Source: a virus
Lineage: Duplodnaviria; Caudoviricetes
Length of the DNA stretch: 64,000 nucleotides
Direction: 5' to 3' (one strand)
Virus record (IMG/VR): IMGVR_UViG_3300020414_000008
Location: 1-64,000 of that record
Shown here: positions 9,007 to 34,900 of the stretch, piece by piece
How positions within the stretch are numbered: the first letter of the stretch is position 1
Layout of the letters: each line of letters begins with the position of its first letter
Program-made: the position numbers and the translations under genes
Notes under the pieces: generated by a model
Database searches by the model: none
What the model was told of the DNA's origin: nothing
Seen by the model: the letters and a program-made list of their open reading frames with translations, nothing else

Positions 9007-9078
9007 ACAATTTCATTAAATTTATTTTCATATTTATAGATACCTATCAATATTGATGGGTATTTTAATTTATATTAC

Positions 9079-13160: not shown

Positions 13161-13219
13161 CGATTTAGAAAAATAAATCAATATTTATATAACGTAAACG
13201 TTAATTATTGGAGAAATAG

Positions 13220-16200
13220 ATGTCATTTGACTACACGGGTTCATTTAGTGGTTCGTTCACAGGTAATTTAATATCAACTAATGGAGTGATATCCTCATCG
13301 GCACAATTGCCAAGTGGGATTTTATCATCTTCTGCTCAATTACCAAGTGGAATAGTGTCCTCATCGGGACAAATCAACTATAATACTATTACAAACAAAC
13401 CAACTACAATATCTGCGTTCCAAAAAAACTCCATAACCGCAAATATTACGTTTAGACAAGAAACTTTTCCACCGATTTCTTCATCTCTTGCGACAAGAAT
13501 AACAACTGAAGAAGGAAACGTAGATAATTTACAGTCAGATGTAAGTGCTTTACAAACTGCAAGTGGTAGTTTTTCTACAAGAGTTACAAATATTGAAGGA
13601 GCGGGTTATTTAACTTCAGCAAGTGCAGCAGCCGCAGGGTTTGGAAGTGGTGGTTCAACTCCAGCAGGAACAATCAGTAGTTCACAACAAATTACAGACT
13701 TAGGTTTTTCAACAACAGATAGTACAGGTTCAGAGCAAACACTATCTTTTAATGATGGAACAAACGCATTAAGTATTTCAGGTGGAAATTCAGTAGATTT
13801 ATCGTCACTATCAGGTGGCGGTGGTGGTGGAGCCGGATTAAACATAACAGCATCAAATGAGGGAACTCCATTAAGTAAAATAGTTCGTAGTTTTGATTTT
13901 GTAGGTAACGCAGTTACAGCAACTAATGATGGTAACGCAGTTACGGTAACAGTAAACACAGGTTCACTAAAAGACGGAATCATTAGTGGTTCAGAACAGT
14001 TACCAAGTGGATTAATATCAGCATCAAACCAAATAACAATAACAGAATCACAAATTAGTGACTTAGGGTCATATTTAACGTCAGTTCCAGCAGGAACTGT
14101 TAGTGGTTCTACTCAAATTACTTTTAGTGGTATTAGTGGTACTCCAAGTGGGTTAGTATCATCTTCAAATCAGATACTACCAATCACAACTTCAAGTATT
14201 ACTGACTTCCCAACAGAAGTTTCAAAGTCAGCAGCGTCATTTGGGTTTGGAACAGGTGGTGGTGGTTCAACTGACATAACAGCATTAAATACATTTACAG
14301 GTTCTGCTAATACAAGTATTACAGCATTAAATACATTTACAGGTTCTGCGATTTCAAACAGTCAAACTTCGTCTATGACGGTAGCAACCGCATCATACGC
14401 GTTGTTTGCAATATCAGCATCACATGAGATAGTCACAGAAGTGTCTTCATCTCATGCAGTAAACGCAGATACAGCATCATTTGTGATAGGTCATGTACAA
14501 ACTTCTCAAACAAGTTCAATGTCTGTAGCAACTTCATCGTTTACAACAGGATTTTCAATTTTTGACGGGAACAGAGTAATATCTAACACAAATCTACCAG
14601 CGGGAGTTTACAATACTAACGCAGGAACAAGTGGTTCCCTAACACAATTTATAGAAAAGGTATTTTTCCCAAATACAGTACCATCAATCACAACAAATGG
14701 ATTTACAATCGGTGAATTCGTAGCAAGTGGTTCTGTAATTGGAACTGCGACAGCAACAGACGCAGAAGGACAAAGTATTACATTTAGAGAAGCAAGTTCT
14801 TACTCAGATGACTTCTTTAAGATAGCAAGTAACGGACAAATAACTCTAAATACTAAATCAACAGCATCAATGAACACTGATAATACGCCAGGTAGTGGTT
14901 CTCATCCATTCCCTATAGAAGCAGTGGATACATTCGCAGGTGTTGGTTCTAAAACATTATACATACGGGTAACTCCTAACACTCCACCTGTTTGGAGACA
15001 AACATCAGTAGGTGGTTCAATAGTGACAACGTTTACACAATCACTAAATGAAAATTCTGTAGCAGCAAATAATAAAGTTAGAGTTTATTTTACTGACGCA
15101 GAAAGTGACACTATAACAATCGGAAGTGGTTCAGCATTTGTAAGTTCAAGTTTTTCAATTACTAAAGCAAGTACATATGTTCAACTAAATCAGATAACTT
15201 CTTCATTAGATTATGAAGTTACCCCAAAATATGAATTCGTTTTAACAGCGAGTGATGAACATTATGGAAGTGGTGATGATACTGAATCAATTACTTACTT
15301 ACCATTCCAAATAGCAGTAGTTGATAACGTTGGTCCAACTGTAAATGACCAAACATTAGGAAGTATTAACGAAAATAGTGCAGATGGTGCAAGTGTAGGT
15401 TCAATAACTGCAACAGACCCAACAGGTGATACAATAACATTTAGTAACTTTACACTAAAAGAAGCAAATTTAGATGGTGGTTCAAATATTACATCATCTT
15501 TAGGTGGTAACTCATTATATGACCCACATCAAGACCCATTCCAATGTAGTTCGGCAGGTGCAGTAACAAGAAAGAATGGAGTTTATCTAAATTCTGATGT
15601 AGCGAACAGATATTTTTATCAAGTAACAGTAAAAGACGCATTTAACTCAACATCTGATACAGGTTTAATTAGAATTAATATCGCAGATGATTCAGCAACT
15701 TCAATAACTGACAATTGGGATAATTTATATATCATAGAATCCGCAACAAGTGGTAATGAAATAAAAATTAGTTCAAATGGTAGAACAGGTACAAGTGCAT
15801 TATGGTCATCAGGAGTATCTCAGAGATGGGAAGTTAAATCAACAGGTAATTTAATTGGATTATCATCTACAACAGGTTCAAGTGCAACTTTACAATTAGC
15901 AAGTAACCTAAGTGGTTCAGCATATTCAAGTGGAAGTACAATCGCAGTAGAACTAACTGCATCAGAAAATGGATTTGAAACAACTAAACAATATGTAAAT
16001 CAAAATATCGCAGTTGTTATCAATAACGCACCTGTTCCAAGTTTCAGTAACACATCTGCAAACTTAAATACAAATGGTGCAAGAAGTGGTAGTACAATTT
16101 CAACAATATCGTTTACAGATACAGAGAGTGATTCATTAAATCACGGTTCATTTACATTTACAGACCCAAGTGGTCAATTAAACGCATATAAATCTGGCGA

Positions 16201-17515
16201 TACTTACTTAGTACAACCAAAAAATAATTTAAGTGGTTCCACTTATCCAATGACCGCATCTATAAAAGATACTCATGGATTTAGAGTAGGTACTACTAAA
16301 CATAGTGTAACAATCGCATCAGCACCAAATGGTACTTTAACTACAAATGGTACATTTAGAATAATAGAGAGTGCAGAAAGTGGAGCACATATAAAAATTA
16401 ACGCTGATGGTAGAACGGGAACACAAGGTGACTTAGGAGTTACTTACTCACCTCAATATAATTCCGCAGCAGTACAAGCATTTACTTCATCTAACGCAGC
16501 CATCGCAGTAAACAGTAATGGTAAACTAACAATAGGTGTAAATATAAGTGGTTCAAGTACAGGTAGTGGTGATACAATTACATCAACTATATCATATCAA
16601 GACCAATTTAATAATATAGGTTCAGACAGTATATCAGTAAGTGTAGTTGCAAATCAGGCTCCAACAGCAACATTTAGTGAGATTGGTGCAAACATGACAG
16701 CATCGATTGCAAGTGGAACAGGTTTAGTAAGTATGTCAATATCTGATACAGAATCAGATACACCGTTCTCCGCTTCATTTAGTGGACCAAACGCAGGAAA
16801 CTTACAATTTGTACCACAAAATGCAAATTCATCGTCATACGTTATTAAAACGACAGGTACGATAAATTCAGGTGTAACATATAGTTATACAGCATCAGTA
16901 CATGATAACTTTGATAAATCAACATCATATAAAAGAACAATAACACTTCTTGACCCTGTAGCAAAAACATATGTTTATGGATGGGACGGTGGTTCTGCAG
17001 CAACAGAAGCAACAGCAATCGCATCTATGGGTGATAGTGGTGGTGATGGAGTAGGAATCGAAGCAGGTTCAGTAATCGCAAAACTACAAAGTGGTTCACT
17101 TGGTACAACATTCAGTCCAACTTATGTTGGTGGTACAATGTTACTATTTGGAAGTAGTTCAAAAACAACATTATCAGATAGTAATGCAACAGGACTATCA
17201 AGTTTTGGATATATAAACTTTAGTAGTGGTGGTTCAAAAAGATTAGTAGTAGTATTCCCATCAGCATCAAATCAGTTTGGGAAACCAGCAAGTATGTATG
17301 ATGGAGTTCCACCTGATTCAACAGGAACAGCAAAAGAATACTATGTATATGCAAAAGACGCCTCAATTCCTGGCACAATTGGAACAGGTGTATATTACTT
17401 CGACACTGAGAACGCAGTTGAAGGATATTCAAGATGGGGTATGATATTTGCAGAAGGTGAAAATACAAATAACTCAAGATATTATTTAATGCCTGACTCA
17501 GCGTCAGCACCATAG
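13220..17515 (+). CDS. Large virion fibre/decoration protein with cadherin/Ig-like repeats
   Basis: Ser/Thr/Gly-rich N-terminus with SSSAQ repeats, then repeated N..P...E....G..IG...ATD.EG..ITF cadherin-like modules (LDYE motif). Confidence 0.7.
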   Translation: MSFDYTGSFSGSFTGNLISTNGVISSSAQLPSGILSSSAQLPSGIVSSSGQINYNTITNKPTTISAFQKNSITANITFRQETFPPISSSLATRITTEEGNVDNLQSDVSALQTASGSFSTRVTNIEGAGYLTSASAAAAGFGSGGSTPAGTISSSQQITDLGFSTTDSTGSEQTLSFNDGTNALSISGGNSVDLSSLSGGGGGGAGLNITASNEGTPLSKIVRSFDFVGNAVTATNDGNAVTVTVNTGSLKDGIISGSEQLPSGLISASNQITITESQISDLGSYLTSVPAGTVSGSTQITFSGISGTPSGLVSSSNQILPITTSSITDFPTEVSKSAASFGFGTGGGGSTDITALNTFTGSANTSITALNTFTGSAISNSQTSSMTVATASYALFAISASHEIVTEVSSSHAVNADTASFVIGHVQTSQTSSMSVATSSFTTGFSIFDGNRVISNTNLPAGVYNTNAGTSGSLTQFIEKVFFPNTVPSITTNGFTIGEFVASGSVIGTATATDAEGQSITFREASSYSDDFFKIASNGQITLNTKSTASMNTDNTPGSGSHPFPIEAVDTFAGVGSKTLYIRVTPNTPPVWRQTSVGGSIVTTFTQSLNENSVAANNKVRVYFTDAESDTITIGSGSAFVSSSFSITKASTYVQLNQITSSLDYEVTPKYEFVLTASDEHYGSGDDTESITYLPFQIAVVDNVGPTVNDQTLGSINENSADGASVGSITATDPTGDTITFSNFTLKEANLDGGSNITSSLGGNSLYDPHQDPFQCSSAGAVTRKNGVYLNSDVANRYFYQVTVKDAFNSTSDTGLIRINIADDSATSITDNWDNLYIIESATSGNEIKISSNGRTGTSALWSSGVSQRWEVKSTGNLIGLSSTTGSSATLQLASNLSGSAYSSGSTIAVELTASENGFETTKQYVNQNIAVVINNAPVPSFSNTSANLNTNGARSGSTISTISFTDTESDSLNHGSFTFTDPSGQLNAYKSGDTYLVQPKNNLSGSTYPMTASIKDTHGFRVGTTKHSVTIASAPNGTLTTNGTFRIIESAESGAHIKINADGRTGTQGDLGVTYSPQYNSAAVQAFTSSNAAIAVNSNGKLTIGVNISGSSTGSGDTITSTISYQDQFNNIGSDSISVSVVANQAPTATFSEIGANMTASIASGTGLVSMSISDTESDTPFSASFSGPNAGNLQFVPQNANSSSYVIKTTGTINSGVTYSYTASVHDNFDKSTSYKRTITLLDPVAKTYVYGWDGGSAATEATAIASMGDSGGDGVGIEAGSVIAKLQSGSLGTTFSPTYVGGTMLLFGSSSKTTLSDSNATGLSSFGYINFSSGGSKRLVVVFPSASNQFGKPASMYDGVPPDSTGTAKEYYVYAKDASIPGTIGTGVYYFDTENAVEGYSRWGMIFAEGENTNNSRYYLMPDSASAP

Positions 17516-17533
17516 GAAAAGGAAAAGAAATAG

Positions 17534-18619
17534 ATGGCAACAACAGCAGGTGATATTTATGTAAGAAGTGGAGCGTCAGGTTCATTCACATCAGTACAAT
17601 ATGTACAAGGTGGTTGGATTACTGTACCGTCTGCTTCAGACATGAGTTCTATTTATCACGATAGACTTAGAGATGGACAGATTGTTTGGGTAGAACATAC
17701 TGAACAATTATATGTCACAAGAAAGTTTGTCGCATTCTCTACGCCAGGATACGGTGGTTCAGATGACTCAGCATCATTCCATACTACCAACTTAGGTATT
17801 TCAGGTGGTGGTGGTGGTGGAGCCGGTGATATTACATCGGTGACAGCAGGAACAGGTTTAAGTGGTGGTGGAGCATCAGGTGCAGTAACACTTAACTTAG
17901 ATACATCAGACGCAGCATTTATATCAGGTGTAAGTGGTCTACTGACATCATTAAATAATTTTACGGGTTCAGCAAATACAAGTATTACATCATTAAATAC
18001 TTTCACGGGTTCTGTGATTACAAACAGTATGACAAGTTCTATGAGTGTAGCAAGTTCTTCTGTATCAGATAGAGCAATGTTCGCAGCACAATGGACATTA
18101 GGTGCAGATGGTTCTAACCATTATACATTTACAGGTCACGGTTTGACGGGAGCGGAAAATGACCCAACTCTTTATTTAATGAGAGGTCAAAAATATAAAT
18201 TCATCAATAATATGGGAGCACATCCATTTAGGATTCAATCAACTCCAAATGGTTCAGCAGGTTCTGCATATAATGATGGTGTAACTAACAATGATGTTTC
18301 AAGTGGAACATTAACTTGGGACGTACAATTCGATTCACCAAGAGTTTTATATTATCAATGTACTGCTCACGCAAACATGGGTGGTGTAATTTACATACTA
18401 AACGCAGATACAGGTTCTGGCGGTGGTGGTGGAACAGGTGGTATATTTACAACTACAGGTTCTTTCAAATCAACTACGAACAATTTAGATATAACAGGTT
18501 CGGTTAGAGTCGGTGACGGTGTTTTAAGATTAAAAGAATTTACAACTACTCCAACTTATGAAGAGGGTGCAATATTTTATTCAGCATCAAACTTTTACTT
18601 TGGGTTAGGAAGTAGTTAA
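17534..18619 (+). CDS. Virion structural protein with cupredoxin-like domain
   Basis: GDITSVTAGTGLSGGG fibre motif; HPF...YYQCTAHANMGG. Confidence 0.65.
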   Translation: MATTAGDIYVRSGASGSFTSVQYVQGGWITVPSASDMSSIYHDRLRDGQIVWVEHTEQLYVTRKFVAFSTPGYGGSDDSASFHTTNLGISGGGGGGAGDITSVTAGTGLSGGGASGAVTLNLDTSDAAFISGVSGLLTSLNNFTGSANTSITSLNTFTGSVITNSMTSSMSVASSSVSDRAMFAAQWTLGADGSNHYTFTGHGLTGAENDPTLYLMRGQKYKFINNMGAHPFRIQSTPNGSAGSAYNDGVTNNDVSSGTLTWDVQFDSPRVLYYQCTAHANMGGVIYILNADTGSGGGGGTGGIFTTTGSFKSTTNNLDITGSVRVGDGVLRLKEFTTTPTYEEGAIFYSASNFYFGLGSS

Positions 18620-18722
18620 TAAAATATAATTACATATTTATATTATGTAAGAAATTGGTTTTGGACGGTACATTGTTGTGTACCATAAGTTGTTTAAAAT
18701 AATAAATTAATAGGAGAAAAAA

Positions 18723-20132
18723 ATGGCAACATGGAAAAAAGTCATTGTCTCGGGTTCAAGTGCCGACCTTCTTAATGTATCCGCATCAGCAGGGTTCAAA
18801 GGAAATTTAGTTGGTAACGTAACAGGGACGGCAACACAGGTTGGGAACAGTTTGACAGTTGATAATTCAACTATTCAGCTGGACTCAGGTACCACATATG
18901 ATGGTGCAGCAGCGAAGACCGTTAGTCTAAAAGACGGTGGTACTACGTTAGCAAAACAGGCTAATATGGCCGCAGATAGAATACAAGGTAGAGCAAATGG
19001 TGCAGGAACAGGTGTACCTCAAGCATTAACCAAAACACAAGTTTTAACAATTCTTAACGTTGAAGACGGAGCAGATGTAACTGACGCAGCGGGAATCGCA
19101 GCATTAGGTGCAGGAATTGTATCGTCATCAGCACAGGTATCAGGTTTAGCTGGTGTTAATGATTCAACAATCACAATAACCGCAGGTGATGGTTTAAAAA
19201 CGGGTGGTACATTTACATTGAATGATTCAAGTGACAGAGAAATAACACTTGATATTGATGTTGATGTTATGGCAGGTGCAGGTTTAGTTGCAGATAACAC
19301 AAATGAAGAATTAGATGTAAACGTAGATGACTCAACTATTGAAATCAGTTCAGACGCACTAAGAGTTAAAGATAGTGGTATTACATTAGCAAAAATAGCA
19401 AATATTGCAGACGATACAATTTTAGGTAATGTGTCAGGTGGTGCAGCAGCACCAAGTGCATTAAGTAAAGCAAATGTATTAACATTACTTAATGTTGAAG
19501 ATGGTGCAGATGTAACTGACGCAGCAGGAATTAGAGCATTAGGTGCAGGAATTATATCTTCTTCAGCACAAGTTGATATCTCAAGTAAAACTGTAGCAGC
19601 ATCACAAGTAACTGAAATCAGTAACTTAACTGCAGCAGAAGGTGCACAATTAGAGAACATCGGTACAACAACAATCTCAGCAGCTCAATGGGGTTACTTA
19701 GGTGGAATGGACCAAAATGTAAAAACAAACTCTAATGTTAACTTTAACAACTTGGTTGTAGCAGGTGATTTAACTGTTGAAGGTTCAAGAACTGAATTAC
19801 AAGTAGCTAACTTAAATGTAGAAGACCAATATATCTTATTAAACTCAGGTTCAACATCAGGAGACTCAGGTATTATATTTGGTGGTTCTAACACAACCGC
19901 TAACTCAGGTCACGCACTTATTTTAGATAATTCTTACAATTCTAACGATGGTCGTTTAGCAGTACAGGTAACTGATAAAGCAGCGTCTAACTCAGATGAC
20001 TTCGCAGCAGGTACAACAGGTTATTATTTAGCTGGTGTATATGAAGGAACTGAAGCTAACGCAGCAACAGCATTAGCAGACCATCCTGGCAATATAAGAA
20101 TAGAATCAAATGAGATTTATATCTATGTGTAA
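18723..20132 (+). CDS. Tail/head fibre-like structural protein
   Basis: MATWKKVIVSGS N-terminus; internal duplication LNVEDGADVTDAAGI.ALGAGI.SSSAQV; GDLTVEG...LNVED..ILLN fibre motif; AGGAG SD. Confidence 0.7.
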   Translation: MATWKKVIVSGSSADLLNVSASAGFKGNLVGNVTGTATQVGNSLTVDNSTIQLDSGTTYDGAAAKTVSLKDGGTTLAKQANMAADRIQGRANGAGTGVPQALTKTQVLTILNVEDGADVTDAAGIAALGAGIVSSSAQVSGLAGVNDSTITITAGDGLKTGGTFTLNDSSDREITLDIDVDVMAGAGLVADNTNEELDVNVDDSTIEISSDALRVKDSGITLAKIANIADDTILGNVSGGAAAPSALSKANVLTLLNVEDGADVTDAAGIRALGAGIISSSAQVDISSKTVAASQVTEISNLTAAEGAQLENIGTTTISAAQWGYLGGMDQNVKTNSNVNFNNLVVAGDLTVEGSRTELQVANLNVEDQYILLNSGSTSGDSGIIFGGSNTTANSGHALILDNSYNSNDGRLAVQVTDKAASNSDDFAAGTTGYYLAGVYEGTEANAATALADHPGNIRIESNEIYIYV

Positions 20133-20151
20133 ATAAATTAAAAAATTAGTT

Positions 20152-20340
20152 ATGTCAAATCACAAACAACTGAAAAAAAGTATACAACAAACCCAACAAG
20201 AGACAAACCTCAAGCTCACTAAACAAGAGCTTGAGGTTCTCTTATTTTTAATATCAAATGGAACCTTTAAGGGTACAGATATTGAAAGAATCTATAAATT
20301 AGCAGTAAAAATTCAAGTAGAACACGATAAATTAAAATAG
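20152..20340 (+). CDS. Small hypothetical protein (possible fibre chaperone)
   Basis: 62 aa; L+.+EL..L...+...+.G pattern shared with the next ORF. Confidence 0.6.
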   Translation: MSNHKQLKKSIQQTQQETNLKLTKQELEVLLFLISNGTFKGTDIERIYKLAVKIQVEHDKLK

Positions 20341-20342
20341 TT

Positions 20343-20534
20343 ATGGAACAATACAAAGGTTTAGAAGAAAACGATTTAAAAGTTATACAAATCGCATTAA
20401 ATAAACTACCAATAACAGGTGCAGAAGCACAGATGATGGTAGGAATCCAACAAAAAATCCAAATGGAGTTAGACTTCTTAAAAACTCCAAAAAGAGGTAG
20501 ACCAAAAAAAGGTAATACAATAATTAAAGGATAA
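20343..20534 (+). CDS. Small hypothetical protein (possible fibre chaperone, paralog-like of previous)
   Basis: 63 aa; LEENDLKVIQIALNKLPITGAEA...KIQ resembles the upstream ORF. Confidence 0.6.
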   Translation: MEQYKGLEENDLKVIQIALNKLPITGAEAQMMVGIQQKIQMELDFLKTPKRGRPKKGNTIIKG

Positions 20535-20590
20535 TTTTACTTTCTTTTATTTTTTCAATACTTATATAAAAGAAATTAAGTTAAATCTTG

Positions 20591-20636
20591 GTTGTTGGCC
20601 CTTATGGGAAGTGGGCACGAATGTGTTACCAACCGC
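20591..20636 (+). ncRNA. Putative structured 5'-UTR RNA (three-way junction)
   Basis: GTTGG/CCAAC closing stem, CCC-TTAT-GGG hairpin, AAGT linker, GGCAC-GAAT-GTGTT hairpin; GC-rich patch in an AT-rich intergenic region. Confidence 0.4.
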
Positions 20637-20652
20637 AAATTAGGATTAGAAT

Positions 20653-21462
20653 ATGCCAAATTGGAAAAAAGTAGTAACTTCAGGCAGTAATGCCGTATTT
20701 AATGAAATAACCGCGTCAGGTGAAGTTCGTTTCGATGGAACGGGTTCATTTAATTCAGGAATACATCTTCCTGACTCTAAAGAAATATCGCTAGGTGATG
20801 GCGGAAATCTAAAAATATATCATAACGGTGCAAATTCTTACATTCACGAAGGTAAGGGTGACGCAGACGGAGCATTATACATTATTGGTTCTTGGTTGTT
20901 GATGGAATCAACGGAAGGAAACCCATTAATCTATGCAAAACACGGTGACAACACAGGAGAGGTTCAATTATATCACGGTGGTAATCAAAAATTTAGAACA
21001 CAAGCAACAGGGTCCCATGTAACAGGTCACTTATCATTATCAGGTGGTATAACTAAAGCACCTATGATGATTTCAACAAATGGTGAAGTTCCACTTGAAG
21101 GTATAACTAATGCATTTGTTCCATTCTCAAGTATAAACACAATGGACCAACATACAGTAAACGGTTACTATCAATTCGCAGCACCGTATGATGGAACTGT
21201 ACAAAAAATTATGGTTCATCCACATACAAACGCAACAGCAGGTACTTGTACAATACAACTATTAAAAAACGGAAGTAATTTAGGAAGTTCTGTACAGGCA
21301 TCAATTTCAGCAACAAGAGGTACTATTAGAGAATTTAGTTTCGGAGATACTTACAGTTTTGATAAAGGTGATAGACTAAATCTAAAATTTGACAGAGAAG
21401 AAGCAGAACGAGCAACAGGTTTTGGGTTCACAATAGTATTTGAAATGAACACAACAACATAA
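20653..21462 (+). CDS. Fibre-associated structural protein
   Basis: [13 protein letters not shown]-terminus shared with 18723; [17 protein letters not shown] fibre repeat; beta-rich C-terminal domain. Confidence 0.65.
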
Positions 21463-21472
21463 GGGGTATAAT

Positions 21473-24400
21473 ATGAGTTTGATACACGGATTACATAAAG
21501 ATACCTTACTTGAAATCAACGGTAAACTTACTTCAATAAGTAATATATTAGTTGGTGATAAAGTCCAAGGTTACGATACACAGAATGGTGTCTACAGAGA
21601 CAATAAAGTTGTTAGAGTTGTAACACAAGAAATAGATTCTCATTTAAAATTAAAACTTTCAGACGGAACTGAGTTAAAAACTTCCGTTGATATAAAAATA
21701 TATAAAGATGGTGAATGGGTTTCACCAATCGGTAATACGTCATGCGCATCTGATGATTGTAAATGTTCTCATAAATCATTTTTCAATGACATAAAAGTTA
21801 TTTCCGTAGAATTAGTAGAAAAACCTATAGTAATTAGAAGTATAGAGGTAGAACCTGACCATAATTACTTTGTAGGTAATCTATTAGTACACAACACGGG
21901 TCCACAAGGTCCTAAAGGTCAAAAAGGACAAAAAGGTGCCTTAGGTCCAGCAGCATCGCCAGGTCCTCAAGGAGCACAGGGTGCTAAAGGTAGTACAGGT
22001 GGACAAGGTGGTACAGGTTCAACAGGTCCAAAAGGTCCAAAAGGTTCTACAGGTCCACAGGGAGCACAAGGTCCACAAGGTGCAACAGGACCAAAAGGTC
22101 CACAAGGTGCAACAGGACCACAAGGTGCAACAGGACCACAGGGAGCAACAGGAGCAAAAGGTCCTAAAGGTTCCACAGGTGGGGCGGGTCCAAAAGGTCC
22201 AAAAGGTCCCACAGGTGCAAAAGGTCCAAAAGGTAGTTTAGGTCCACAAGGTGCAAAAGGTCCAAAAGGTTCTACAGGTCCACAAGGTCCACAAGGTGAT
22301 ACAGGTCCTACAGGTGCATCGTTAACAGGTCCACAAGGTGGAAAAGGTCAAAAAGGTGCAACAGGAGCATCACCAACAGGTCCACAAGGTCAAAAAGGTC
22401 AAAAAGGTGCAACAGGTCCTCAAGGTTCAAGTCCTCAGGGTTCTAAAGGTCAAAAAGGTCAAAAAGGTGTAACAGGTCCTCAAGGTTCAAGTCCACAAGG
22501 TGCAACAGGTCCTCAAGGTGGAAAGGGTCAAAAAGGTGAAGTAGGAGCATCACCTCAGGGTGCAACAGGTGCACAAGGTGCAAAAGGTCCACAGGGTCCT
22601 CAAGGTCAAAAGGGTGCACAAGGTTCATCACCACAAGGTGCACAAGGTCCTACAGGAGCAACAGGTGCACAAGGTGCATCACCTCAGGGTGCTAAAGGTC
22701 AAAAAGGTCAAAAAGGTGCAACAGGTCCACAAGGTGCACAAGGTTCAAGTCCACAAGGTTCTAAAGGACAAAAAGGTGCAACAGGTCCACAAGGTGCACA
22801 GGGTGCAAGTCCTCAGGGAGCAAAAGGTAATACAGGTCCAGCAGGAGCAGTAGGTGCACAAGGTCCACAAGGTGCAAGTCCAAAAGGTCAAAAGGGTGCA
22901 CAGGGTAGTACAGGAGCACAAGGTCCTCAAGGTGCACAAGGTTCAAGTCCTCAGGGAGCAAAAGGTCCTAAGGGTCAAAAAGGTGCAGTAGGTCCTCAAG
23001 GTGCACAGGGTGCAAGTCCAACAGGTCCTAAAGGTCCACAGGGAGCGACAGGACCACAAGGAGCACAAGGTGCAAGTCCTAAAGGTCAAAAAGGTGAAGT
23101 AGGTCCTCAAGGTCCTCAAGGAGCACAGGGTTCATCACCACAAGGTGCAAAAGGTCCTCAAGGTTCTAAAGGACAAAAGGGTGAAGTAGGAGCATCACCA
23201 ACAGGTCCACAGGGTGCACAAGGTGCAAAAGGTCCACAGGGTCCTGAAGGTCAAAAAGGTTCACAAGGTGCAAGTCCAAAAGGTTCTCAAGGTCCTACAG
23301 GAGCAACAGGAGCACAAGGTGCAAGTCCTCAAGGTGCAAAAGGTCCTAAAGGTCCACAAGGAGCACAAGGTCCACAAGGTGCACAAGGTGCAAGTCCTCA
23401 AGGTTCTAAAGGTCAAAAAGGTGCAACAGGTCCTCAGGGTGCACAGGGAGCATCACCTCAAGGAGCACAGGGTGCAAAAGGTGCACAAGGTCCTCAGGGT
23501 GAACAAGGTGCACAAGGTGCAAGTCCTAAAGGTCAAAAAGGTCAAAAAGGTGAAGTAGGAGCACAAGGTCCACAAGGAGCACAAGGTTCAAGTCCTCAAG
23601 GTTCTAAAGGACAAAAAGGTCAAAAAGGAGCAGTAGGTCCTCAAGGTGCACAAGGAGCATCTCCTCAGGGAGCACAAGGTCCTCAAGGTTCTAAAGGTCA
23701 AAAAGGTGAAATAGGAGCACAGGGTGCGAGTCCAAAAGGTCAAAAAGGTGCACAAGGTGGTCAAGGGGCAACAGGAGCACAGGGTTCATCACCACAAGGT
23801 GCTAAAGGTCCACAGGGGTCTAAAGGTCAAAAAGGTGAAATAGGAGCACAAGGTGCAAGTCCTAAAGGTCAAAAAGGTGAAGTAGGAGCACAAGGTCCTC
23901 AAGGTGCACAGGGTTCAAGTCCTAAAGGACAAAAAGGTGAAGTAGGAGCACAAGGTCCTCAAGGTGCACAGGGTTCAAGTCCTCAAGGTGACCGAGGTGC
24001 ACAAGGAGCAACAGGAGCACAAGGTCCTCAAGGTGCACAAGGTGCAAGTCCTCAAGGTGCAAAAGGTCCTAAGGGTCAAAAAGGTGAAATAGGAGCACAG
24101 GGTGCAAGTCCACAAGGAGCACAAGGTCCTAAAGGTCCTCAGGGTGACCAAGGTGCACAAGGTAGTTCACCTCAAGGTTCAAAAGGTGAAAAAGGACAAA
24201 AAGGAGCACAAGGTCCAACAGGTGCACAGGGTGCAAGTCCACAAGGTGCAAAAGGTCAGAAAGGACAAAAAGGTGCATTAGGTGACCAAGGTGCACAGGG
24301 TGCAAGTCCAAAAGGTCAAAAAGGTGAATTAGGTCCTAAAGGTCAAAAAGGTGAAATAGGAGCACAAGGTGCAAGTCCTAAAGGTCAAAAAGGTGAAATA

Positions 24401-24901
24401 GGAGCACAGGGTCCTCAGGGTGACCAAGGTGCACAAGGAGCAGCACCTCAAGGTTCTAAAGGTCAAAAGGGTGAAGTAGGAGCACAAGGTCCTCAAGGTG
24501 CACAAGGTGCAAGTCCTAAAGGTCAAAAAGGTGAAATAGGAGCACAGGGTCCTCAAGGTGCACAAGGTTCATCACCTCAAGGAGCACAAGGTCCTAAAGG
24601 TGAAAAAGGTCAAAAAGGTGAAAAGGGTGCAACAGGAGCACAAGGTGCAAGTCCTAAAGGTGAAAAAGGTCAAAAGGGTGCACAAGGAGCAACAGGAGCA
24701 CAAGGAGCGAGTCCTCAAGGAGATAAAGGTCAAAAAGGTGTAACAGGAGCAAAAGGTGAACCAGCATTAGGAACGGTAATTAATCAACTAACTGCGCCTG
24801 GTGATGGATTTAGTTTTTCTTTAAATGATGGATTATTAACATTTAAGAGTGGAAGTTTCACAGGTATCGTTTTGATGTATACAAGTGGAAGTGTCTCTTA
24901 A
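21473..24901 (+). CDS. Collagen-like protein 1 with N-terminal Hint domain
   Basis: Residues 1-141 are Hint-like, ending [18 protein letters not shown]|T; ~950 aa of Gly-X-Y with periodic G(A/S)SP(Q/K/T)G breaks; short C-terminal domain. Confidence 0.88.
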
Positions 24902-24917
24902 TATAAAAAGGTAACAG

Positions 24918-28628
<3,711 letters not shown>

Positions 28629-28679
28629 TATTTATTAAAATAATTTTCATATTTATATAAAAGATTAAAACAATTAGTT

Positions 28680-29282
28680 ATGAATGGTAATTTCTCGTTT
28701 GATAGAAACACATACAGACAAGACGTAAACTTTACTGATTATTATTGGTTCAAGAACGCATTTTCCCCACAAGAGTTAGTTAATATAGAACAAATGACAA
28801 ACGCGATTGAATTCGAAGACGCGGTAACAGGTGAGGGTGATAATTCAAAAGTATCTGATTACAGAAAGTCAAGAATAAAATGGTGTCCACAAAATCTTGA
28901 GTGGGCGTGGGTATATAATAAACTTCACGATTATATAAAAGAAGCAAATGACATAATGTGGAAGTTTGATTTATCTACTATGAATGAATCAATCCAATAT
29001 ACAGAATATTATGGAACACAAGAAGGTGGATATGAATGGCACATGGATTGTGGTGAACAAATTCAAAACCAAAGAAAAGTATCAGTAACAGTACAACTTT
29101 CAGATTCACATGAGTATGAAGGTGGTGATTTGGAATTTAATATTGGTCAACATAAGGTAGCACCAAGGTCTCAAGGAGCAGCAGTTATATTTCCATCATT
29201 TTATTTACATAGAGTAACTCCTGTAACAAAGGGTGTAAGAAAGTCTTTCGTTCTTTGGGTAGGTGGAGAACCATATAGGTAA
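28680..29282 (+). CDS. 2OG-Fe(II) oxygenase (prolyl-4-hydroxylase/PKHD-like)
   Basis: WHMD (HxD), YEGGDLEF, FPSFYLHRVTPVTKGVRKS (distal His, 2OG-binding Arg). Confidence 0.9.
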   Translation: MNGNFSFDRNTYRQDVNFTDYYWFKNAFSPQELVNIEQMTNAIEFEDAVTGEGDNSKVSDYRKSRIKWCPQNLEWAWVYNKLHDYIKEANDIMWKFDLSTMNESIQYTEYYGTQEGGYEWHMDCGEQIQNQRKVSVTVQLSDSHEYEGGDLEFNIGQHKVAPRSQGAAVIFPSFYLHRVTPVTKGVRKSFVLWVGGEPYR

Positions 29283-29288
29283 TTTACT

Positions 29289-30578
29289 ATGAAAACAAGT
29301 TTACCCACAGCATTAATATATGGTTGGGATAGGTTTGGTGAAATAAAATTAAAATCAGATGTATATCACCAAGAAGATTTGTATGAAGATGTTATTTTAT
29401 ATTCATATGAATCGAGTATAGATTTTAAAAAAGATTTCGCAAAACATAGACCCGATATTATTATTGTAATTGGTGAAGTTGGAAATAATATTTTACAAAT
29501 GGGACATCATACGATGGTATCAAGTAAGATAGTATCATATGATTCTATTCCATCTGATAATATTTTGGCTAATGATGTAGTTTGTCAATCAACATTTTGG
29601 GCATGTAAATCACAAAAAGAAGTATATGGTGATAAAGATAAACCAATACTATCTATATTTACTCCAACTTATATAACAAACGAAAGAATATTTAGAACGT
29701 ATGAAAGTTTGGTAAATCAAACTTACGAAAATTGGGAGTGGGTTGTCGTAGATGATTCACCATCTGATGAAAACAAAACTTGGGAATATCTTGAAGATAT
29801 CGCAAGTCAAGATTATAGAGTTCACATACATAAAATGACACCAACCTCAGGTGGTAACGTTGGTGAAGTAAAACATAGAGCAGCTATGTTATGTAATGGT
29901 GAATGGTTATTTGAATTAGACCATGATGATTGGTTAATTTCAACTTGTTTGGAAGATGTATTTAAAGCAAGTAAGAAACATCCTGATTCAGGATTTATAT
30001 ATACAGACGTAACTGAAATTAACAAAGATAATTCACCAAGAGATTATGGTCGTATAGGAGATGATTGGTATGGACATCCTGATAATAACTTTGCATGGGG
30101 ATATGCAGGACATACTTGGGAAACAAGAGACGGTGAGAAATGGTTAGTACATCACTATCCTGATATTAACCCTAAAACAATTAGATTTAATATTGGTATG
30201 CCAAATCATTGTAGAGTTTGGAATAGAGATACTTATCATAAGATAAGAGGACATAGTAGACATATATCAGTCGCAGATGATTATGAATTGATTGTAAAAA
30301 CATTTTTAGAAACTAAATTTATACATCTTAAAAAAATGTTGTATGTACAATATAATAATGGTGATTCTACAGTTGATAATAATGTAATTGATATTAATCG
30401 TAGAGCAAGATTGATTAGAGATTATTATGACCCAATGATTCACAAAAGAATAAAAGAATTGGGTGGTTTTGATTGGAGTTGGAATGAAGATGATAATAGA
30501 TGTTATCAATTACAACGTTGGATGGATTGGACCCGATTTTATGACAAAGAAGAAGTTTTAAATTATATAGTAGAGTAA
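29289..30578 (+). CDS. Family 2 glycosyltransferase with extra N-terminal domain
   Basis: SIFTPTY, WEWVVVDDS, GEWLFELDHDD, ADDYEL motifs. Confidence 0.9.
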   Translation: MKTSLPTALIYGWDRFGEIKLKSDVYHQEDLYEDVILYSYESSIDFKKDFAKHRPDIIIVIGEVGNNILQMGHHTMVSSKIVSYDSIPSDNILANDVVCQSTFWACKSQKEVYGDKDKPILSIFTPTYITNERIFRTYESLVNQTYENWEWVVVDDSPSDENKTWEYLEDIASQDYRVHIHKMTPTSGGNVGEVKHRAAMLCNGEWLFELDHDDWLISTCLEDVFKASKKHPDSGFIYTDVTEINKDNSPRDYGRIGDDWYGHPDNNFAWGYAGHTWETRDGEKWLVHHYPDINPKTIRFNIGMPNHCRVWNRDTYHKIRGHSRHISVADDYELIVKTFLETKFIHLKKMLYVQYNNGDSTVDNNVIDINRRARLIRDYYDPMIHKRIKELGGFDWSWNEDDNRCYQLQRWMDWTRFYDKEEVLNYIVE

Positions 30579-30581
30579 GAT

Positions 30582-32279
30582 ATGAAAATATTAATTTATG
30601 TAGGTTATCAAAAAGAATCAGTTAACAAAGATTATTGGTTAAGTAAAGGAATGGGTGGTTCTGAATATTGTGTTATGAAACTTTCAGAACAATTCGCACA
30701 AAATGGACACGATGTAACAATTACAGGTGGTATTACCGACCAAGATGTTGATGGTGTCAAGTATAGAAGTATAGAAAGTTTTATTAATAGTGGTGAAAAC
30801 TATTTTGATATTGTAATATCTACAAATTATATACATTATATTCAAATGTTAGAGGATTTTGGAATAAATTATGAAAAATCTTATTTTTGGATTCATAATG
30901 AAGAATTTTATACTTGGTACAATGGTGTAGAATTACCAAATGAAGGATTGGATTATCTAAATCACGACAAGTTAGATAAGATAATAGCAGTATCAGAATG
31001 GCAAAAAAATGTATTAGTTGAAAAATATAGTTTGGAACCATCTAAAGTAAGTGTAATAGGAAACGCGATAACTCCAAGTGATTTTGATAGTATTGAACAA
31101 GAAAAATATAACAATAAAATAATCTATACATCATCACCTGATAGAGGGTTAGTTGATTTACTTGATATATGGCCAAAACTTAAAAAAATAAATCCTGAAT
31201 TAACTTTATGGATTGCATCACCACCATATACAAAAGATTGGGACCTTTCTGTATTAGAATCGTTACCAAATGATGTTAGATGGTTAGGTCATTTACCACC
31301 AAGTGAACTATACAAACAAATTAAATCATCTGAGTATTGGATTTACCCATCCACATACGATGAGACATATTGTATAACAGCATTAGAGATGATGATGGGT
31401 AGAGTTAAATTGATATCTACTGATACAGCAAATCTCAAAACTTTATTAGATGGTAAATGTAGTTTAATCAGGTCAGATTTATCTAACTCATTAATGAAAG
31501 AAACAATAATTTCTTCATATGTATTTTTAAGAGAAAATGAAGAAGTAGCACAAAAATATTTAAACGTAGGTGAACAATTTGCAAGAGAACAGACTTGGGA
31601 AGTCAGATATAAAGAGTGGATGGATGTAATGGAAGGTTATTCAGAAGAAACAGAAAGATTACATCCCGAACTTTACGATTATTGGAACAACAAAGAGGAA
31701 TGGGTAAATAAATTTATCACATATTCAGCAAGAACAAAAGAATGGGACTTGATAGTAGATGAACCATTTGATAATTGTTTTTCATTTCCATTATTTACTC
31801 CTGAGTTTTGTAAAATGATTCGTGAAGAAGCAGAACATTCTGATTCTTGGACAGTAGACAGACACGAAAACTATCCTACAACAGATATGGTCTTACAGAC
31901 GATAGGAATGCATGACATTTATATGGAAGTATTAAAAGAATATGTTATGCCATTATCAATCTATATGTGGGCATTGGAAGGTAAAGGTTGGGATTCTATG
32001 AAAGCTGAAAACTTTTTAGCAAAATATATACCAACAGCACAAGGACATCTTTCTATACATCATGATAGAGCAGATATTACTTGTTTGATACAATTATCGG
32101 ACTTAAATGAGTATGAAGGTGGTGGTACTTGGTTCAGACGACAAAAGAAATTAATTAAGAATGATATCGGTTATGCAACCCTACATCCTGGCAACATAAC
32201 TCACAAGCATGGGGCAAGAGCAGTGACAAAAGGGACACGTTATATAATAGTTTCGTTTATGGAAAATGGGGAAAGGTAA
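30582..32279 (+). CDS. GT-B (GT4-like) glycosyltransferase fused to a PLOD-like lysyl hydroxylase domain
   Basis: N-terminal GGSE...YTSSPDRGL...YPSTYDETYCITALE; C-terminal LHPELY..W, FPLFTPEFC, ENYPTTD, HHD, YEGGGTWF, LHPGNITHKH, GTRYIIVSF as in LH/PLOD catalytic domains. Confidence 0.85.
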   Translation: MKILIYVGYQKESVNKDYWLSKGMGGSEYCVMKLSEQFAQNGHDVTITGGITDQDVDGVKYRSIESFINSGENYFDIVISTNYIHYIQMLEDFGINYEKSYFWIHNEEFYTWYNGVELPNEGLDYLNHDKLDKIIAVSEWQKNVLVEKYSLEPSKVSVIGNAITPSDFDSIEQEKYNNKIIYTSSPDRGLVDLLDIWPKLKKINPELTLWIASPPYTKDWDLSVLESLPNDVRWLGHLPPSELYKQIKSSEYWIYPSTYDETYCITALEMMMGRVKLISTDTANLKTLLDGKCSLIRSDLSNSLMKETIISSYVFLRENEEVAQKYLNVGEQFAREQTWEVRYKEWMDVMEGYSEETERLHPELYDYWNNKEEWVNKFITYSARTKEWDLIVDEPFDNCFSFPLFTPEFCKMIREEAEHSDSWTVDRHENYPTTDMVLQTIGMHDIYMEVLKEYVMPLSIYMWALEGKGWDSMKAENFLAKYIPTAQGHLSIHHDRADITCLIQLSDLNEYEGGGTWFRRQKKLIKNDIGYATLHPGNITHKHGARAVTKGTRYIIVSFMENGER

Positions 32280-32315
32280 GTTTGTCCATATTTATATACA
32301 TAAAGGGGATTTAAA

Positions 32316-33479
32316 ATGGCAGTAAATATACCAATATGGCCTGGTTCAGGTTCGTTTTCAAGTGGTTCTTCTACTCCTTTCGGATACTTTGATGGTGATA
32401 CAACATTTCAAAGTGACGCACCGAAAGTAGCAGAATGGTGTGCTAAAAGATTAGGATATCCAATCGTAGATGTCGAATTACAAGATATAAACTTTTTCGC
32501 GTGTTTAGAAGAAGCAGCAAATGAATATTCTTCACAAGTAAATCAATATAGAGCTAAAGAAAACTTACTATCTTTAAAAGGTAATTCATTAGATTTAGAT
32601 TTAAAAGATACTGAAATCGCTACTAACTTAGGTGGAGTAGTAAATATTGCAAAAGATTATGGTACTGAAGCGGGAAGTGGTGGTAGAGTAACTGTATATA
32701 CAGGTTCCTTTGAAATGGTTGGTGGTCAACAAATATATGACTTAGGTGATGATAATGTTGTTAACTTAGAAAGTGGTTCAGTATCAAACGGGATTACACT
32801 AAGAAAAGTATTCCATACACAACCACCAGCAATAATAAGATATTTTGACCCGTTTGTAGGAACAGGTCTTGGTTCTCAACAAATGTTAAATACATTTGGA
32901 TGGGGAGCGTATTCGCCAGGTGTATCGTTTATGATGCAACCGATGTTCGATGACTTGTTAAGATTACAGGCGATTGAATTTAATGATTACATAAGAAAAT
33001 CATCATTTGGATTTCATGTAGATGGACAAAGAGTAAAATTATTCCCTGTTCCTGCAACAGGTGACGCAGGTGCAAAAGTATATTTTAATTATACATTAGA
33101 AAGTGAAACAAAATCACCGATTGCAAATTCAAATGTTGTAAGTGATTTATCAAACGCACCATTTGGAAGATTAACATATACAAATATTAATAGTGCGGGT
33201 AAACAGTGGATTGCAAGATATTCATTAGCATTAGCAAAAGAAATGTTAGGAGCAATCAGGTCTAAGTTCAGTAACATTCCAATTCCTGGCTCTGAAATAA
33301 CACTTGACGGTGGTGATTTACGAAGTGAAGCAGCAGCGGAAAGAGAAACACTAATCACTGAATTAAAAGAAATGTTAGAAGCAACTTCACGAAGAGCATT
33401 AATGGAAGCGAAAAAAGAAGAATCTGAATTCTTAGAGGAAACTTTAAACAGAGTTCCAAGACCAATTTTTATAGGATAA
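32316..33479 (+). CDS. Neck/head-completion protein (gp13-like)
   Basis: KRLGYPIVDVEL and ALAKEMLGAIRSKF..IP.PG..ITLDG motifs; position upstream of the tail genes. Confidence 0.75.
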   Translation: MAVNIPIWPGSGSFSSGSSTPFGYFDGDTTFQSDAPKVAEWCAKRLGYPIVDVELQDINFFACLEEAANEYSSQVNQYRAKENLLSLKGNSLDLDLKDTEIATNLGGVVNIAKDYGTEAGSGGRVTVYTGSFEMVGGQQIYDLGDDNVVNLESGSVSNGITLRKVFHTQPPAIIRYFDPFVGTGLGSQQMLNTFGWGAYSPGVSFMMQPMFDDLLRLQAIEFNDYIRKSSFGFHVDGQRVKLFPVPATGDAGAKVYFNYTLESETKSPIANSNVVSDLSNAPFGRLTYTNINSAGKQWIARYSLALAKEMLGAIRSKFSNIPIPGSEITLDGGDLRSEAAAERETLITELKEMLEATSRRALMEAKKEESEFLEETLNRVPRPIFIG

Positions 33480-34854: not shown

Positions 34855-34900
34855 TTTTTACATATTTATATAATGTAAGTTAAAATTAAAGTAAATTGTT

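Follow-up and report, generated by a model that had tools for sequence, protein, structure and literature searches.

A GT4 glycosyltransferase fused to a collagen lysyl hydroxylase-like domain beside collagen-like fibre genes of a marine T4-like phage

A large uncultured marine T4-like phage encodes a 565 aa protein in which a bacterial-type sugar transferase is joined to a true relative of the collagen lysine hydroxylase of animals and giant viruses. The gene (30582-32279, + strand) is a single open frame in the window, by which we mean the whole 64,000 nt stretch that was analysed (positions 1 to 64,000 of IMG/VR record IMGVR_UViG_3300020414_000008). Gene context is the strongest evidence for its role and, taken together with the sequence features described below, points to a phage that probably hydroxylates and glycosylates its own collagen-like fibres.

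The fusion protein and its two domains

The start ATG of the fusion lies 3 nt past the stop codon of the preceding glycosyltransferase gene, and the N-terminus opens straight into a GT-B fold (MKILIYVGY...). Residues 1–350 (30582..31631, + strand) form a GT4-like GT-B glycosyltransferase domain and residues 351–565 (31632..32279, + strand) a PLOD/L230-like lysyl hydroxylase (LH) domain with a short gating loop. The fusion is no assembly artefact, since an undivided ORF of this kind turns up in more than 90 protein clusters and, at 51–98% identity, in IMG/VR loci.

The N-terminal half scores above the Pfam cut-offs for Glyco_transf_4 (36.0 bits, cut-off 28.5), Glycos_transf_1 (30.3 bits, cut-off 26.4) and Glyco_trans_1_4 (31.6 bits, cut-off 27), and the GT4 domain also matches phrog_2170. 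With Foldseek, its model matched the retaining GT-B enzymes PimA, MshA, BshA, GlgM and tll1591 (TM 0.67–0.71). PimA, MshA, BshA and GlgM share with it the two-Rossmann GT-B fold, the EX7E motif (E261...E269) and an N-terminal Gly-rich loop, but they act on lipids, small molecules and glucans, have no oxygenase fused to them and are 14–17% identical. No match to PF25342 (PLOD GT) or PF01755 was found in the fusion with Pfam. Both Pfam and Foldseek thus bear out the original prediction of a GT-B (GT4-like) partner, and it was also right that LH3 and L230 carry GT-A domains instead (PLOD-GT, GT25). In 42 family members (26–91% identity to the fusion) E269 never varies and the conservation of E261 is at least 90%, and the domain is predicted to act as a glycosyltransferase.

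The C-terminal domain had been singled out for a series of LH motifs, all of which are present in the order claimed from aa 358 (nt 31653): LHPELYDYW, EPFDNCFSFPLFTPEFC, ENYPTTD and LKEYVMP in the first half, and FLAKYIPTAQGHLSIHHD, YEGGGTWF, LHPGNITHKH and GTRYIIVSF in the second. Judged from sequence, such an ordered set far exceeds chance. Using phmmer against the PDB, residues 355–561 matched human LH3 (chain residues 498–714, E 1.2e-30), and a match to the LH domain of mimivirus L230 was also obtained (E 1e-22). Lingula PLOD1 aligned with the domain at 109 bits over 216 aa, and the neighbouring generic 2OG oxygenase at 36 bits over a 115-aa core only. PF25238, the N-terminal helical subdomain of LH, is present as well (40.5 bits, cut-off 31), and the homology spans the whole ~210-aa LH domain and not the DSBH core alone. 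The AlphaFold2 model of the fusion has a pLDDT of 90.9, and its LH part superimposes on the crystal structure of the L230 LH domain (6ax6_B) with a TM of 0.88 and an rmsd of 1.8 A over 208 columns at 31% identity. The PDB matches, PF25238 and the fold all agree with the earlier view that the domain goes beyond a generic 2OG signature and is a specific homolog of the PLOD/L230 LH domains.

The Fe triad is made up of H493 (nt 32058), D495 (32064) and H543 (32208), and the 2OG ligands are Y482 (nt 32025) and R553 (32238). Y482, H493, D495, H543 and R553 align with Y656, H667, D669, H719 and R729 of LH3 and do not vary in any of the 131 LH domains aligned. All mappable substrate-pocket and cofactor residues common to LH3 and L230 are kept, and we infer that the domain has lysyl hydroxylase activity. 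Some other positions have changed. The fusion has Thr at the position of LH3 Cys691, and LH domains form a tail-to-tail homodimer in which a conserved Leu (L230 L873 / LH3 L715) sits in an aromatic pocket; this dimer-contact residue is Ile539 in the fusion, and the aromatic-pocket position F673/Y831 is Ile499.

We give hardly any credence to the possibility that the fusion as a whole, or either domain, has no catalytic activity and instead assists the fibres as a collagen-binding chaperone or assembly factor. Fibre genes often have chaperone genes after them, but in the 42 relatives every Fe/2OG ligand and EX7E glutamate is either invariant or conserved, which is the pattern expected of active enzymes.

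Collagen-like proteins and the surrounding cassette

The gene order is two collagen-like genes, a 2OG oxygenase, a GT2 glycosyltransferase, the fusion and the neck gene gp13. Collagen-like fibre protein A (21473..24901, + strand, 1142 aa), a presumed substrate, has a non-collagen region (aa 1–142), then ~955 aa of Gly-X-Y that G-x-S-P-x-G breaks interrupt at regular intervals, and finally a short knob at the C-terminus. Its N-terminal domain is weakly Hint-like, with a PT-HINT match (E 1e-4) below the cut-off, and the GC content of the gene is 0.50 versus a background of 0.33. Collagen-like fibre protein B (24918..28628, + strand, 1236 aa), likewise a presumed substrate, has up to 183 triplets in an unbroken run, Thr and Lys as Y residues, and a knob at the C-terminus that is related to the knob of protein A. 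Homologs of the N and C termini of protein A are found upstream of the fusion in related loci, and protein B has a counterpart wherever a related locus extends far enough upstream.

Most Lys residues of both proteins lie in G-X-K-G (87 of 98 in protein A and 71 of 73 in protein B). Protein A contains 67 G-P-X-G and no G-X-P-G, protein B contains two G-X-P-G, and the two proteins together thus present 158 G-X-K-G sites with almost no Y-position Pro. X-Lys-Gly is the type of site used by LHs, and the collagens of mimivirus share the pattern of Pro in X and Lys in Y (PMC9614988). Across 37 LH loci the median fraction of Y-position Lys is 0.18 and no locus is at zero, versus a median of 0.004 in 77 other viral collagen loci, 38 of which are at zero (Mann-Whitney p 6e-11; as the loci are related, the p value is indicative only). 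The most Lys-rich control contig carries an LH gene further along (E 1e-78). Among the searchable control contigs, which are few and mostly fragments, an LH was found on one of seven Lys-rich and none of eight Lys-poor ones. Several viral collagens with 18–28% Y-position Lys are found on contigs with no detectable LH, so Lys in this position does not by itself require an LH.

The cassette might also modify the collagens by a different chemistry, with the LH-like domain hydroxylating a different residue or position and the GT4 domain O-glycosylating Y-position Thr as in BclA. Protein B (P0003) has 103 Thr versus 71 Lys in the Y position, Thr being an alternative site of O-glycosylation, and the short-loop clade to which the fusion belongs departs from characterised LHs around the active-site lid. 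Further, the second oxygenase is always present, as would suit two distinct hydroxylations, and the GT4 domain, the only constant transferase, is unrelated to known hydroxylysine (Hyl) transferases. We nevertheless find this chemistry unlikely, given the near-exclusive placement of Lys in Y, the retained pocket and cofactor residues, the relatives in which the same LH is fused to COLGALT1-like or PLOD-GT domains that act on Hyl or Gal-Hyl, and the precedent of LH3 and L230, where the fused transferase acts on the product of the hydroxylase (PMC6082870, PMC9614988). Under this chemistry the fusion would serve to bring two separate activities to one substrate, and the two would not be successive steps, which is equally unlikely. 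Hydroxylation of the Y-position Lys is the reading that we prefer.

The first gene after protein B encodes a small 2OG-Fe(II) oxygenase (28680..29282, + strand, 200 aa) that is PKHD/prolyl-hydroxylase-like (Pfam 2OG-FeII_Oxy_3, E 1e-14; phrog_61, E 7.5e-36; PKHD-type hydroxylases in the PDB, 1e-6). It is a constant companion: every cassette variant for which upstream DNA is available has it beside the LH gene. It is followed by a putative accessory GT2 glycosyltransferase (29289..30578, + strand, 429 aa; GT-A, inverting-type) with matches to Pfam Glycos_transf_2 (E 1.4e-16) and, in the PDB, to chondroitin synthase and TarP-like GT2s. GT2 is present in most related loci and missing from some (L184, L186-L189, L192). 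The idea that GT2 and the GT25 domain inserted in some relatives are mutual replacements was rejected, since some loci have both and some have neither. As GT2 and GT25 come and go among the relatives, any of the transferases may act first.

A late-promoter-like motif, CATATTTATATA (28648..28659, + strand), is found 21 nt ahead of the start codon of the three-gene unit formed by the oxygenase, GT2 and the fusion, and a second copy (32287..32298, + strand) before gp13 closes the unit. The motif has nine matches in the window (1.06 expected), eight of them on the + strand, and each copy that was compared with the ORF list immediately precedes a structural gene. Scans for sigma-70 promoters and terminators gave chance level only. 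The gp13-like neck (head-completion) protein (32316..33479, + strand; phrog_211) is the downstream anchor of the cassette. It is 69–99% identical in related loci, and its homolog in locus L001 matches PF26809 (Phage_T4_gp13).

Within the phage group of the fusion, the synteny consists of one or more collagen genes, the 2OG oxygenase, an optional GT2 and GT4(-GT25)-LH ahead of gp13; a more distant phage group has the same block with no gp13 detected. All related IMG/VR loci whose upstream DNA is long enough keep this synteny, even where the fusion is only 51% identical, and about 80 IMG/VR phage loci have this arrangement, variations included.

The fusion might instead act on a target other than collagen, for instance LPS, glycans of the host envelope or further proteins of host or phage; its place among the fibre genes would then mirror the 'host recognition cluster', where glycosyltransferases of marine myophages accumulate. 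Glycosyltransferases of the hypervariable fibre region were taken as host O-chain modifiers in a pelagimyophage study (PMC7029224), and the bacterial homologs of the fusion do not adjoin collagen genes. Such a target seems decidedly improbable, however, as it leaves unexplained the fusion to an LH-type protein hydroxylase, the invariable adjacency to collagen across divergent phage lineages, the enrichment of Y-position Lys and the siting between late-promoter-like motifs among virion genes. The direct opening of the N-terminus with the GT-B fold also speaks against it.

Proposed fibre modification and known systems

We consider it likely that Y-position Lys residues of the phage collagen fibres undergo late hydroxylation and then O-glycosylation by the bifunctional fusion. 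Homology, fold, the retained catalytic residues, the conserved gene order and the placement of the lysines are observed here; the substrate, the order of steps, the sugar and its linkage are inferred. The fusion would be a cytoplasmic, late-expressed enzyme with the phage's own collagen-like fibre proteins as targets. Its C-terminal Fe(II)/2-oxoglutarate domain would hydroxylate Y-position Lys in Gly-X-Lys-Gly of proteins A and B before these fold into triple helices, and the fused retaining-type GT4 would then move a sugar from a nucleotide sugar onto the new hydroxyl. A role in adding or lengthening sugars is probable for the adjacent GT2, and the small 2OG oxygenase may carry out a second hydroxylation distinct from the LH step. 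The product would be fibres with glycosylated hydroxylysine, which could be neck whiskers or tail fibres. Since mimivirus L230 shows activity when produced in E. coli, a bacterial cytoplasm can support this chemistry.

L230 is a bifunctional collagen lysyl hydroxylase and hydroxylysine glucosyltransferase whose LH domain has been solved (PDB 6ax6). It resembles the phage protein in being a viral single polypeptide with a glycosyltransferase and a C-terminal LH, in its nearly identical LH fold and matching ligands for Fe and 2OG, and in having its own virus's collagen-like proteins, with Pro in X and Lys in Y, as the target, which for the phage is a prediction. It differs in its length (895 aa), its GT25 (GLT25D1-like, GT-A) and PLOD-type middle domains and its place in the long-loop PLOD clade (PMC9614988), whereas the 565 aa phage fusion has a GT-B/GT4 partner, a short loop and a bacterial host and sits in a five-gene cassette with its putative substrates. 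Human LH3/PLOD3 and COLGALT1 (PDB 6fxk, 8zgc) first hydroxylate Y-position Lys and then glycosylate it, as is predicted for the phage, and the LH domains are homologous over their full length. Unlike the fusion, LH3 acts in the ER lumen and carries an accessory domain as well as a GT-A glucosyltransferase at its N-terminus.

Bacillus anthracis BclA is a collagen-like triple-helix exosporium glycoprotein with O-glycans, and in mycobacteriophages transferases decorate virion proteins. Both systems put the sugars directly on Thr or Ser, and neither is known to make its attachment site with a lysyl hydroxylase. In the open-access literature that we searched, no description of a phage or prokaryotic lysyl hydroxylase or hydroxylysine system was found, and hydroxylysine-linked collagen glycosylation was reported only for animals and, since 2011, mimivirus. 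Reviews describe prokaryotic collagens as generally without hydroxylation and glycosylation, and phage collagens as tiny (PMC8968730). Against this picture, the bacteriophage studied here has kilo-residue collagens and a putative dedicated modification cassette. If confirmed, the 'host recognition' glycosyltransferases of marine myophages could be reread as modifiers of virion fibres, and compact enzymes compatible with the bacterial cytoplasm would be at hand for hydroxylated or glycosylated recombinant collagen. Confirmation would also provide a natural 'gating-loop-less' LH for mechanistic work and the microbial sequence diversity for rooting the history of PLOD and COLGALT.

Gating loop, clade placement and relatives

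The gating (capping) loop of LH3 (590-610) is metal-dependent and includes Arg599, and His595, Asp597, Asp611 and His613 make up a second Fe site (PMC6082870); here the fusion differs from LH3. Nine residues of the loop are missing, and the W423-P432 spacing is 8 residues versus 15–24 in all 38 PLOD-clade rows. There is no equivalent of Arg599 or Asp597 and His613 is replaced by V437; His595 and Asp611 are retained as H428 and D435. Arg599 and the second metal site mark every sampled animal, protist and giant-virus row of the PLOD clade, while the short-loop phage and bacterial clade is without them. Owing to the changes in the loop, Arg599, His613, Cys691 and the dimer contact, the regulation, oligomeric state and perhaps specificity of the phage enzyme may differ.

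In an unrooted tree of 131 LH domains ('quick' search), the PLOD clade (animal, protist and L230-like; 38 rows; SH-aLRT 98) leaves the fusion outside, and its LH nests in a large marine GT4/GT25 phage-bacterial clade. The 'animal-type' label of the original prediction is imprecise: the domain is a specific homolog of PLOD/L230, but it lies outside their clade, with a short loop and no Arg599 or His613. GT4 partners are confined to rows outside the PLOD clade, which fits the suggested independent assembly of a hydroxylase-plus-transferase enzyme. As the tree is unrooted, it makes no statement yet on the origin of PLOD; generic 2OG oxygenases were not used as a root because only about 115 core residues align.

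The LH domain is found in interchanging architectures, namely GT4-LH, GT4-GT25-LH, GT25-LH, GT25-PLOD_GT-LH and stand-alone. Close relatives (LH 77% identical) have a GT25 inserted between GT4 and LH whose sole PDB match is the human procollagen galactosyltransferase COLGALT1 (E 1e-13), and other relatives carry the PLOD GT domain. It is doubtful, in our view, that a modular collagen-lysine toolkit exists in phages and some bacteria of marine origin that is older than PLOD and COLGALT and their source, with a novel linkage in this phage. Just as tentative are its details, in which a short-loop LH would be freely combined with GT4, COLGALT-like GT25 and PLOD-GT, always with a second oxygenase alongside. 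The linkage under this reading, again rather doubtful, would begin with a first sugar added by a retaining GT-B, perhaps extended with galactofuranose, unlike in animals, and would decorate neck or tail fibres with which the phage recognises its host.

When compared with 50,697 phage records, the fusion gene had no match at the DNA level and the protein gave weak partial matches only (at most 28% identity). No cultured phage among these records, a set from which close relatives of the window may be missing, carries the fusion. The LH domain family is found in at least 481 IMG/VR stretches. The fusion as a whole has 573 protein matches at E <= 1e-3, and its LH domain matches 2270 cluster representatives. 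The bacterial GT4-LH homologs (42–46% identity) have no collagen gene within 10 kb, and one of their genomes encodes, elsewhere, a collagen ORF with 64 G-X-K-G sites.

A lysyl hydroxylase domain joined to a GT-B glycosyltransferase

The fusion is encoded in a single frame on the + strand (30582–32279, 565 aa). All PLOD motifs listed in the original prediction were found in the stated order, starting at aa 358 (nt 31653). Pfam identifies GT4/GT1 glycosyltransferase domains at aa ~60–300, every one above its curated cut-off, and an "OGFOD2-like" domain at aa 358–463, which is the N-terminal subdomain of PLOD lysyl hydroxylase (LH) domains. A phmmer search of all PDB chains matched the query to human LH3 (E 1.2e-30, aa 355–561 against LH3 chain residues 498–714) and to the LH domain of mimivirus L230 (E 1e-22), with no oxygenases of any other type among the matches. 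Two genes upstream lies a generic phage 2OG oxygenase, whose alignment with the LH domain is confined to 115 core residues (36 bits); that of Lingula PLOD1 covers the full 216 residues (109 bits). The domain therefore does not cluster with generic phage 2OG oxygenases, the outcome that would have spoken against the prediction.

An AlphaFold2 model built from 42 family members had a mean pLDDT of 90.9. According to Foldseek, its C-terminal domain matches the L230 LH crystal structure 6ax6_B (TM 0.88, rmsd 1.8 Å, 31% identity), while the N-terminal domain resembles the retaining GT4 GT-B enzymes PimA, MshA, BshA and GlgM (TM 0.67–0.71). Together with the Pfam domains, this bears out the predicted GT-B (GT4-like) partner.

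Catalytic residues were mapped from the structure papers on LH3 (PMC6082870) and L230 (PMC5802723) onto an alignment of phage, bacterial, L230-like, choanoflagellate and animal LH domains. The Fe triad H493/D495/H543 corresponds to LH3 H667/D669/H719 and the 2OG ligands Y482/R553 to Y656/R729; all five positions are invariant (131/131 domains). The GT4 half retains the EX7E motif (E261...E269), with E269 invariant in the 42 family members. With both active sites intact, a non-catalytic role is very hard to credit.

Active-site region and relatives of the LH domain

The gating loop of LH3 (residues 590–610) contains Arg599, which acts as a substrate mimic, and the second Fe site (H595, D597, D611, H613) has been described as a prerogative of LH enzymes (PMC6082870). 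Relative to LH3, nine residues are missing from the phage domain at precisely this loop; the domain also lacks equivalents of Arg599 and Asp597 and has Val437 at the His613 position. As further differences from PLODs, Cys691 is replaced by Thr516, the dimer-contact Leu by Ile539 and one aromatic pocket residue by Ile499. Loop length and His613 split the PLOD clade cleanly from the other rows of the 131-domain set. The invariant Trp and Pro are 15–24 residues apart in 38/38 PLOD-clade rows, 36 of which have His613, whereas among the 93 other rows the spacing is 8 residues in 86 and none has His613.

Scanned in full with the LH domain, 1.84 billion cluster representatives yielded 2270 relatives at E ≤ 1e-3, including 85 at E ≤ 1e-30. 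Based on domain mapping and Pfam, the same LH type occurs with GT4 as in the query (558–600 aa), in GT4-GT25 proteins (~790–850 aa), with GT25 as only partner (~450 aa), with GT25 and PLOD-GT (P0142), with a C39 peptidase domain (metagenomic P0157), or alone. In metagenomic P0136 this LH type is joined to DUF6445. The C39 and DUF6445 fusions hint at uses beyond glycosylation.

In an unrooted tree of the 131 domains (IQ-TREE "quick" search), which therefore names neither donor nor recipient, the query sits in a group of GT4-LH proteins, which in turn falls within a clade of fusions carrying GT4-GT25 or GT25. A distinct clade (SH-aLRT 98) contains the animal PLODs, a choanoflagellate protein and the L230-like proteins of ~900 aa. 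The predicted animal-type PLOD domain thus holds as regards homology to LH3, but the query falls outside the animal/L230-like clade and has the short loop. P0248, an L230-like example, matches 6ax6 with its LH domain (2e-66), mimivirus R699 with its middle domain (2e-65) and COLGALT1 with its N-terminus (1e-40). In P0082, whose LH domain is 77% identical to that of the query, the GT25 insert matches human COLGALT1 alone in the PDB (E 1e-13), which ties the query's phage clade to hydroxylysine glycosylation.

In the open-access literature searched, neither a lysyl hydroxylase nor glycosylated hydroxylysine was described for any phage or bacterium. L230 has been presented as the first enzyme of this kind outside animals (PMC9614988), and the collagens of prokaryotes and phages are said to be unmodified in general (PMC8968730). 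The fusion is new as an LH-family enzyme with a new partner, in a new host type (bacteriophage) and with a distinct lid-less active-site region.

Collagen genes, insertion site and a putative expression unit

The phage is a T4-like myophage whose genome forms a single contig of 180,769 bp (GC 0.346), and the window encodes terminase, portal, protease, major capsid, PhoH, sheath, UvsX, helicase and RNR. Compared by the neck gene gp13 (32316–33479), it comes closest, among cultured phages, to Microcystis phage Mel-JY01 (50%) and Flavobacterium phage immuto (38%). In Mel-JY01 gp13 directly follows PhoH, whereas here (12498–32316) the gap is filled by ~19 kb of fibre genes, encoding a 1431-aa cadherin-like protein, a baseplate-wedge connector-like protein, the collagens and the modification cassette. 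Since PhoH and gp13 are adjacent in Mel-JY01, the 19-kb fibre/collagen/modification block (13220–32279) is a lineage-specific insertion; the junction is a hypervariable insertion point.

Two collagen-like ORFs directly precede the fusion, A (21473–24901, 1142 aa) and B (24918–28628, 1236 aa). They account for a GC jump to 0.50 and are followed by a 200-aa PKHD-like 2OG oxygenase (28680–29282), a GT2 (29289–30578), the fusion and gp13. In the T4 map, wac (fibritin) precedes gp13; going by gene position only, the collagens may be neck whiskers. Related IMG/VR loci were collected by whole protein (59–98% identity) and by LH-domain profile. Wherever the upstream DNA extends far enough, each of these loci contains one or two collagen-like ORFs, with the small oxygenase and then the LH fusion after them. 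The small oxygenase is constant, GT2 is present or absent, the GT25 insert is optional, and GT4 is the sole constant transferase.

The motif CATATTTATATA (≤1 mismatch) has nine copies in the window against 1.06 expected, eight of them on the + strand. Copies lie at 161–172, 1190–1201, 9029–9040, 13180–13191, 18633–18644, 28648–28659, 32287–32298 and 34861–34872; most, including those compared with the ORF list, are just 5' of structural genes. It is probably the late promoter of this phage group; the T4 sequence for comparison is TATAAATA. One copy (28648) precedes the small oxygenase and another (32287) gp13, and the fusion ATG is 3 nt past the GT2 stop. From this pattern the three enzymes look like one late transcription unit.

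Lysine placement and proposed collagen modification

In collagens A and B, 87/98 and 71/73 Lys residues, respectively, are in G-X-K-G. Pro is placed in the X position and hardly ever in Y (0 and 2), and the same pattern has been reported for mimivirus collagens (PMC9614988). As a control, 80 viral loci were retrieved with a degenerate 15-triplet Gly-X-Y DNA pattern. Their median Y-position Lys fraction was 0.004 (zero in 38/77) compared with 0.18 for LH loci (zero in 0/37; Mann-Whitney p 6e-11, indicative only because lineages are non-independent). The control richest in Lys (0.56) has an LH gene further along the same contig (E 1e-78); no LH was found on the nearly complete contigs of some moderately Lys-rich control collagens.

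We consider it likely that the fusion hydroxylates and glycosylates the phage's own collagens. Late in infection, the LH domain would use Fe(II), 2OG and O2 to hydroxylate Y-position lysines of unfolded chains, and the GT4 domain would glycosylate the new hydroxyl. GT2 and the small oxygenase would add further modifications before the chains trimerise into fibres. Homology, the intact active sites, the fold, gene order and lysine placement are direct observations, from which the substrate, the product, the sugar and the sequence of steps are inferred. Another chemistry on the same collagens, e.g., Thr glycosylation, is unlikely given the lysine placement. For pelagimyophage transferases a host-envelope target has been assumed (PMC7029224); such a non-collagen target is still less probable here, where collagen genes accompany the fusion.

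GT4-LH homologs with 42–46% identity occur in Granulosicoccaceae, a Bugula-associated Chromatiales bacterium, Aliishimia and other Rhodobacteraceae. These fusions are isolated genes in marine Gammaproteobacteria and Rhodobacteraceae (L003/L050, L005/L053, L049), and no collagen gene was found within 10 kb of them. The Aliishimia chromosome has a collagen ORF (L056) ~1.3 Mb from GT4-LH, with 64/67 Lys in G-X-K-G.

Collagen A (22300–24760) has a G-(A/S)-S-P-x-G interruption every 4–7 triplets, giving 39 triplet runs, and collagen B has one run of 183 uninterrupted triplets. Each has an N-terminal non-collagen domain whose last residues are ...VHN (21473–21900 and 24918–25460). In A this domain has sub-threshold Pfam matches to PT-HINT (E 1e-4; 23 bits, cut-off 27.7) and Intein_splicing (E 1.5e-3), with no Hint-type match in B; self-cleavage is conceivable. 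A second sugar/oxygenase cluster (60748–63477) comprises a GT2 (60748–61836), the UDP-galactopyranose mutase Glf (61817–62926, Pfam GLF E 7e-74) and a small 2OG-Fe(II) oxygenase (62920–63477). The phage is probably able to make UDP-galactofuranose, which might serve as a donor for fibre glycans.
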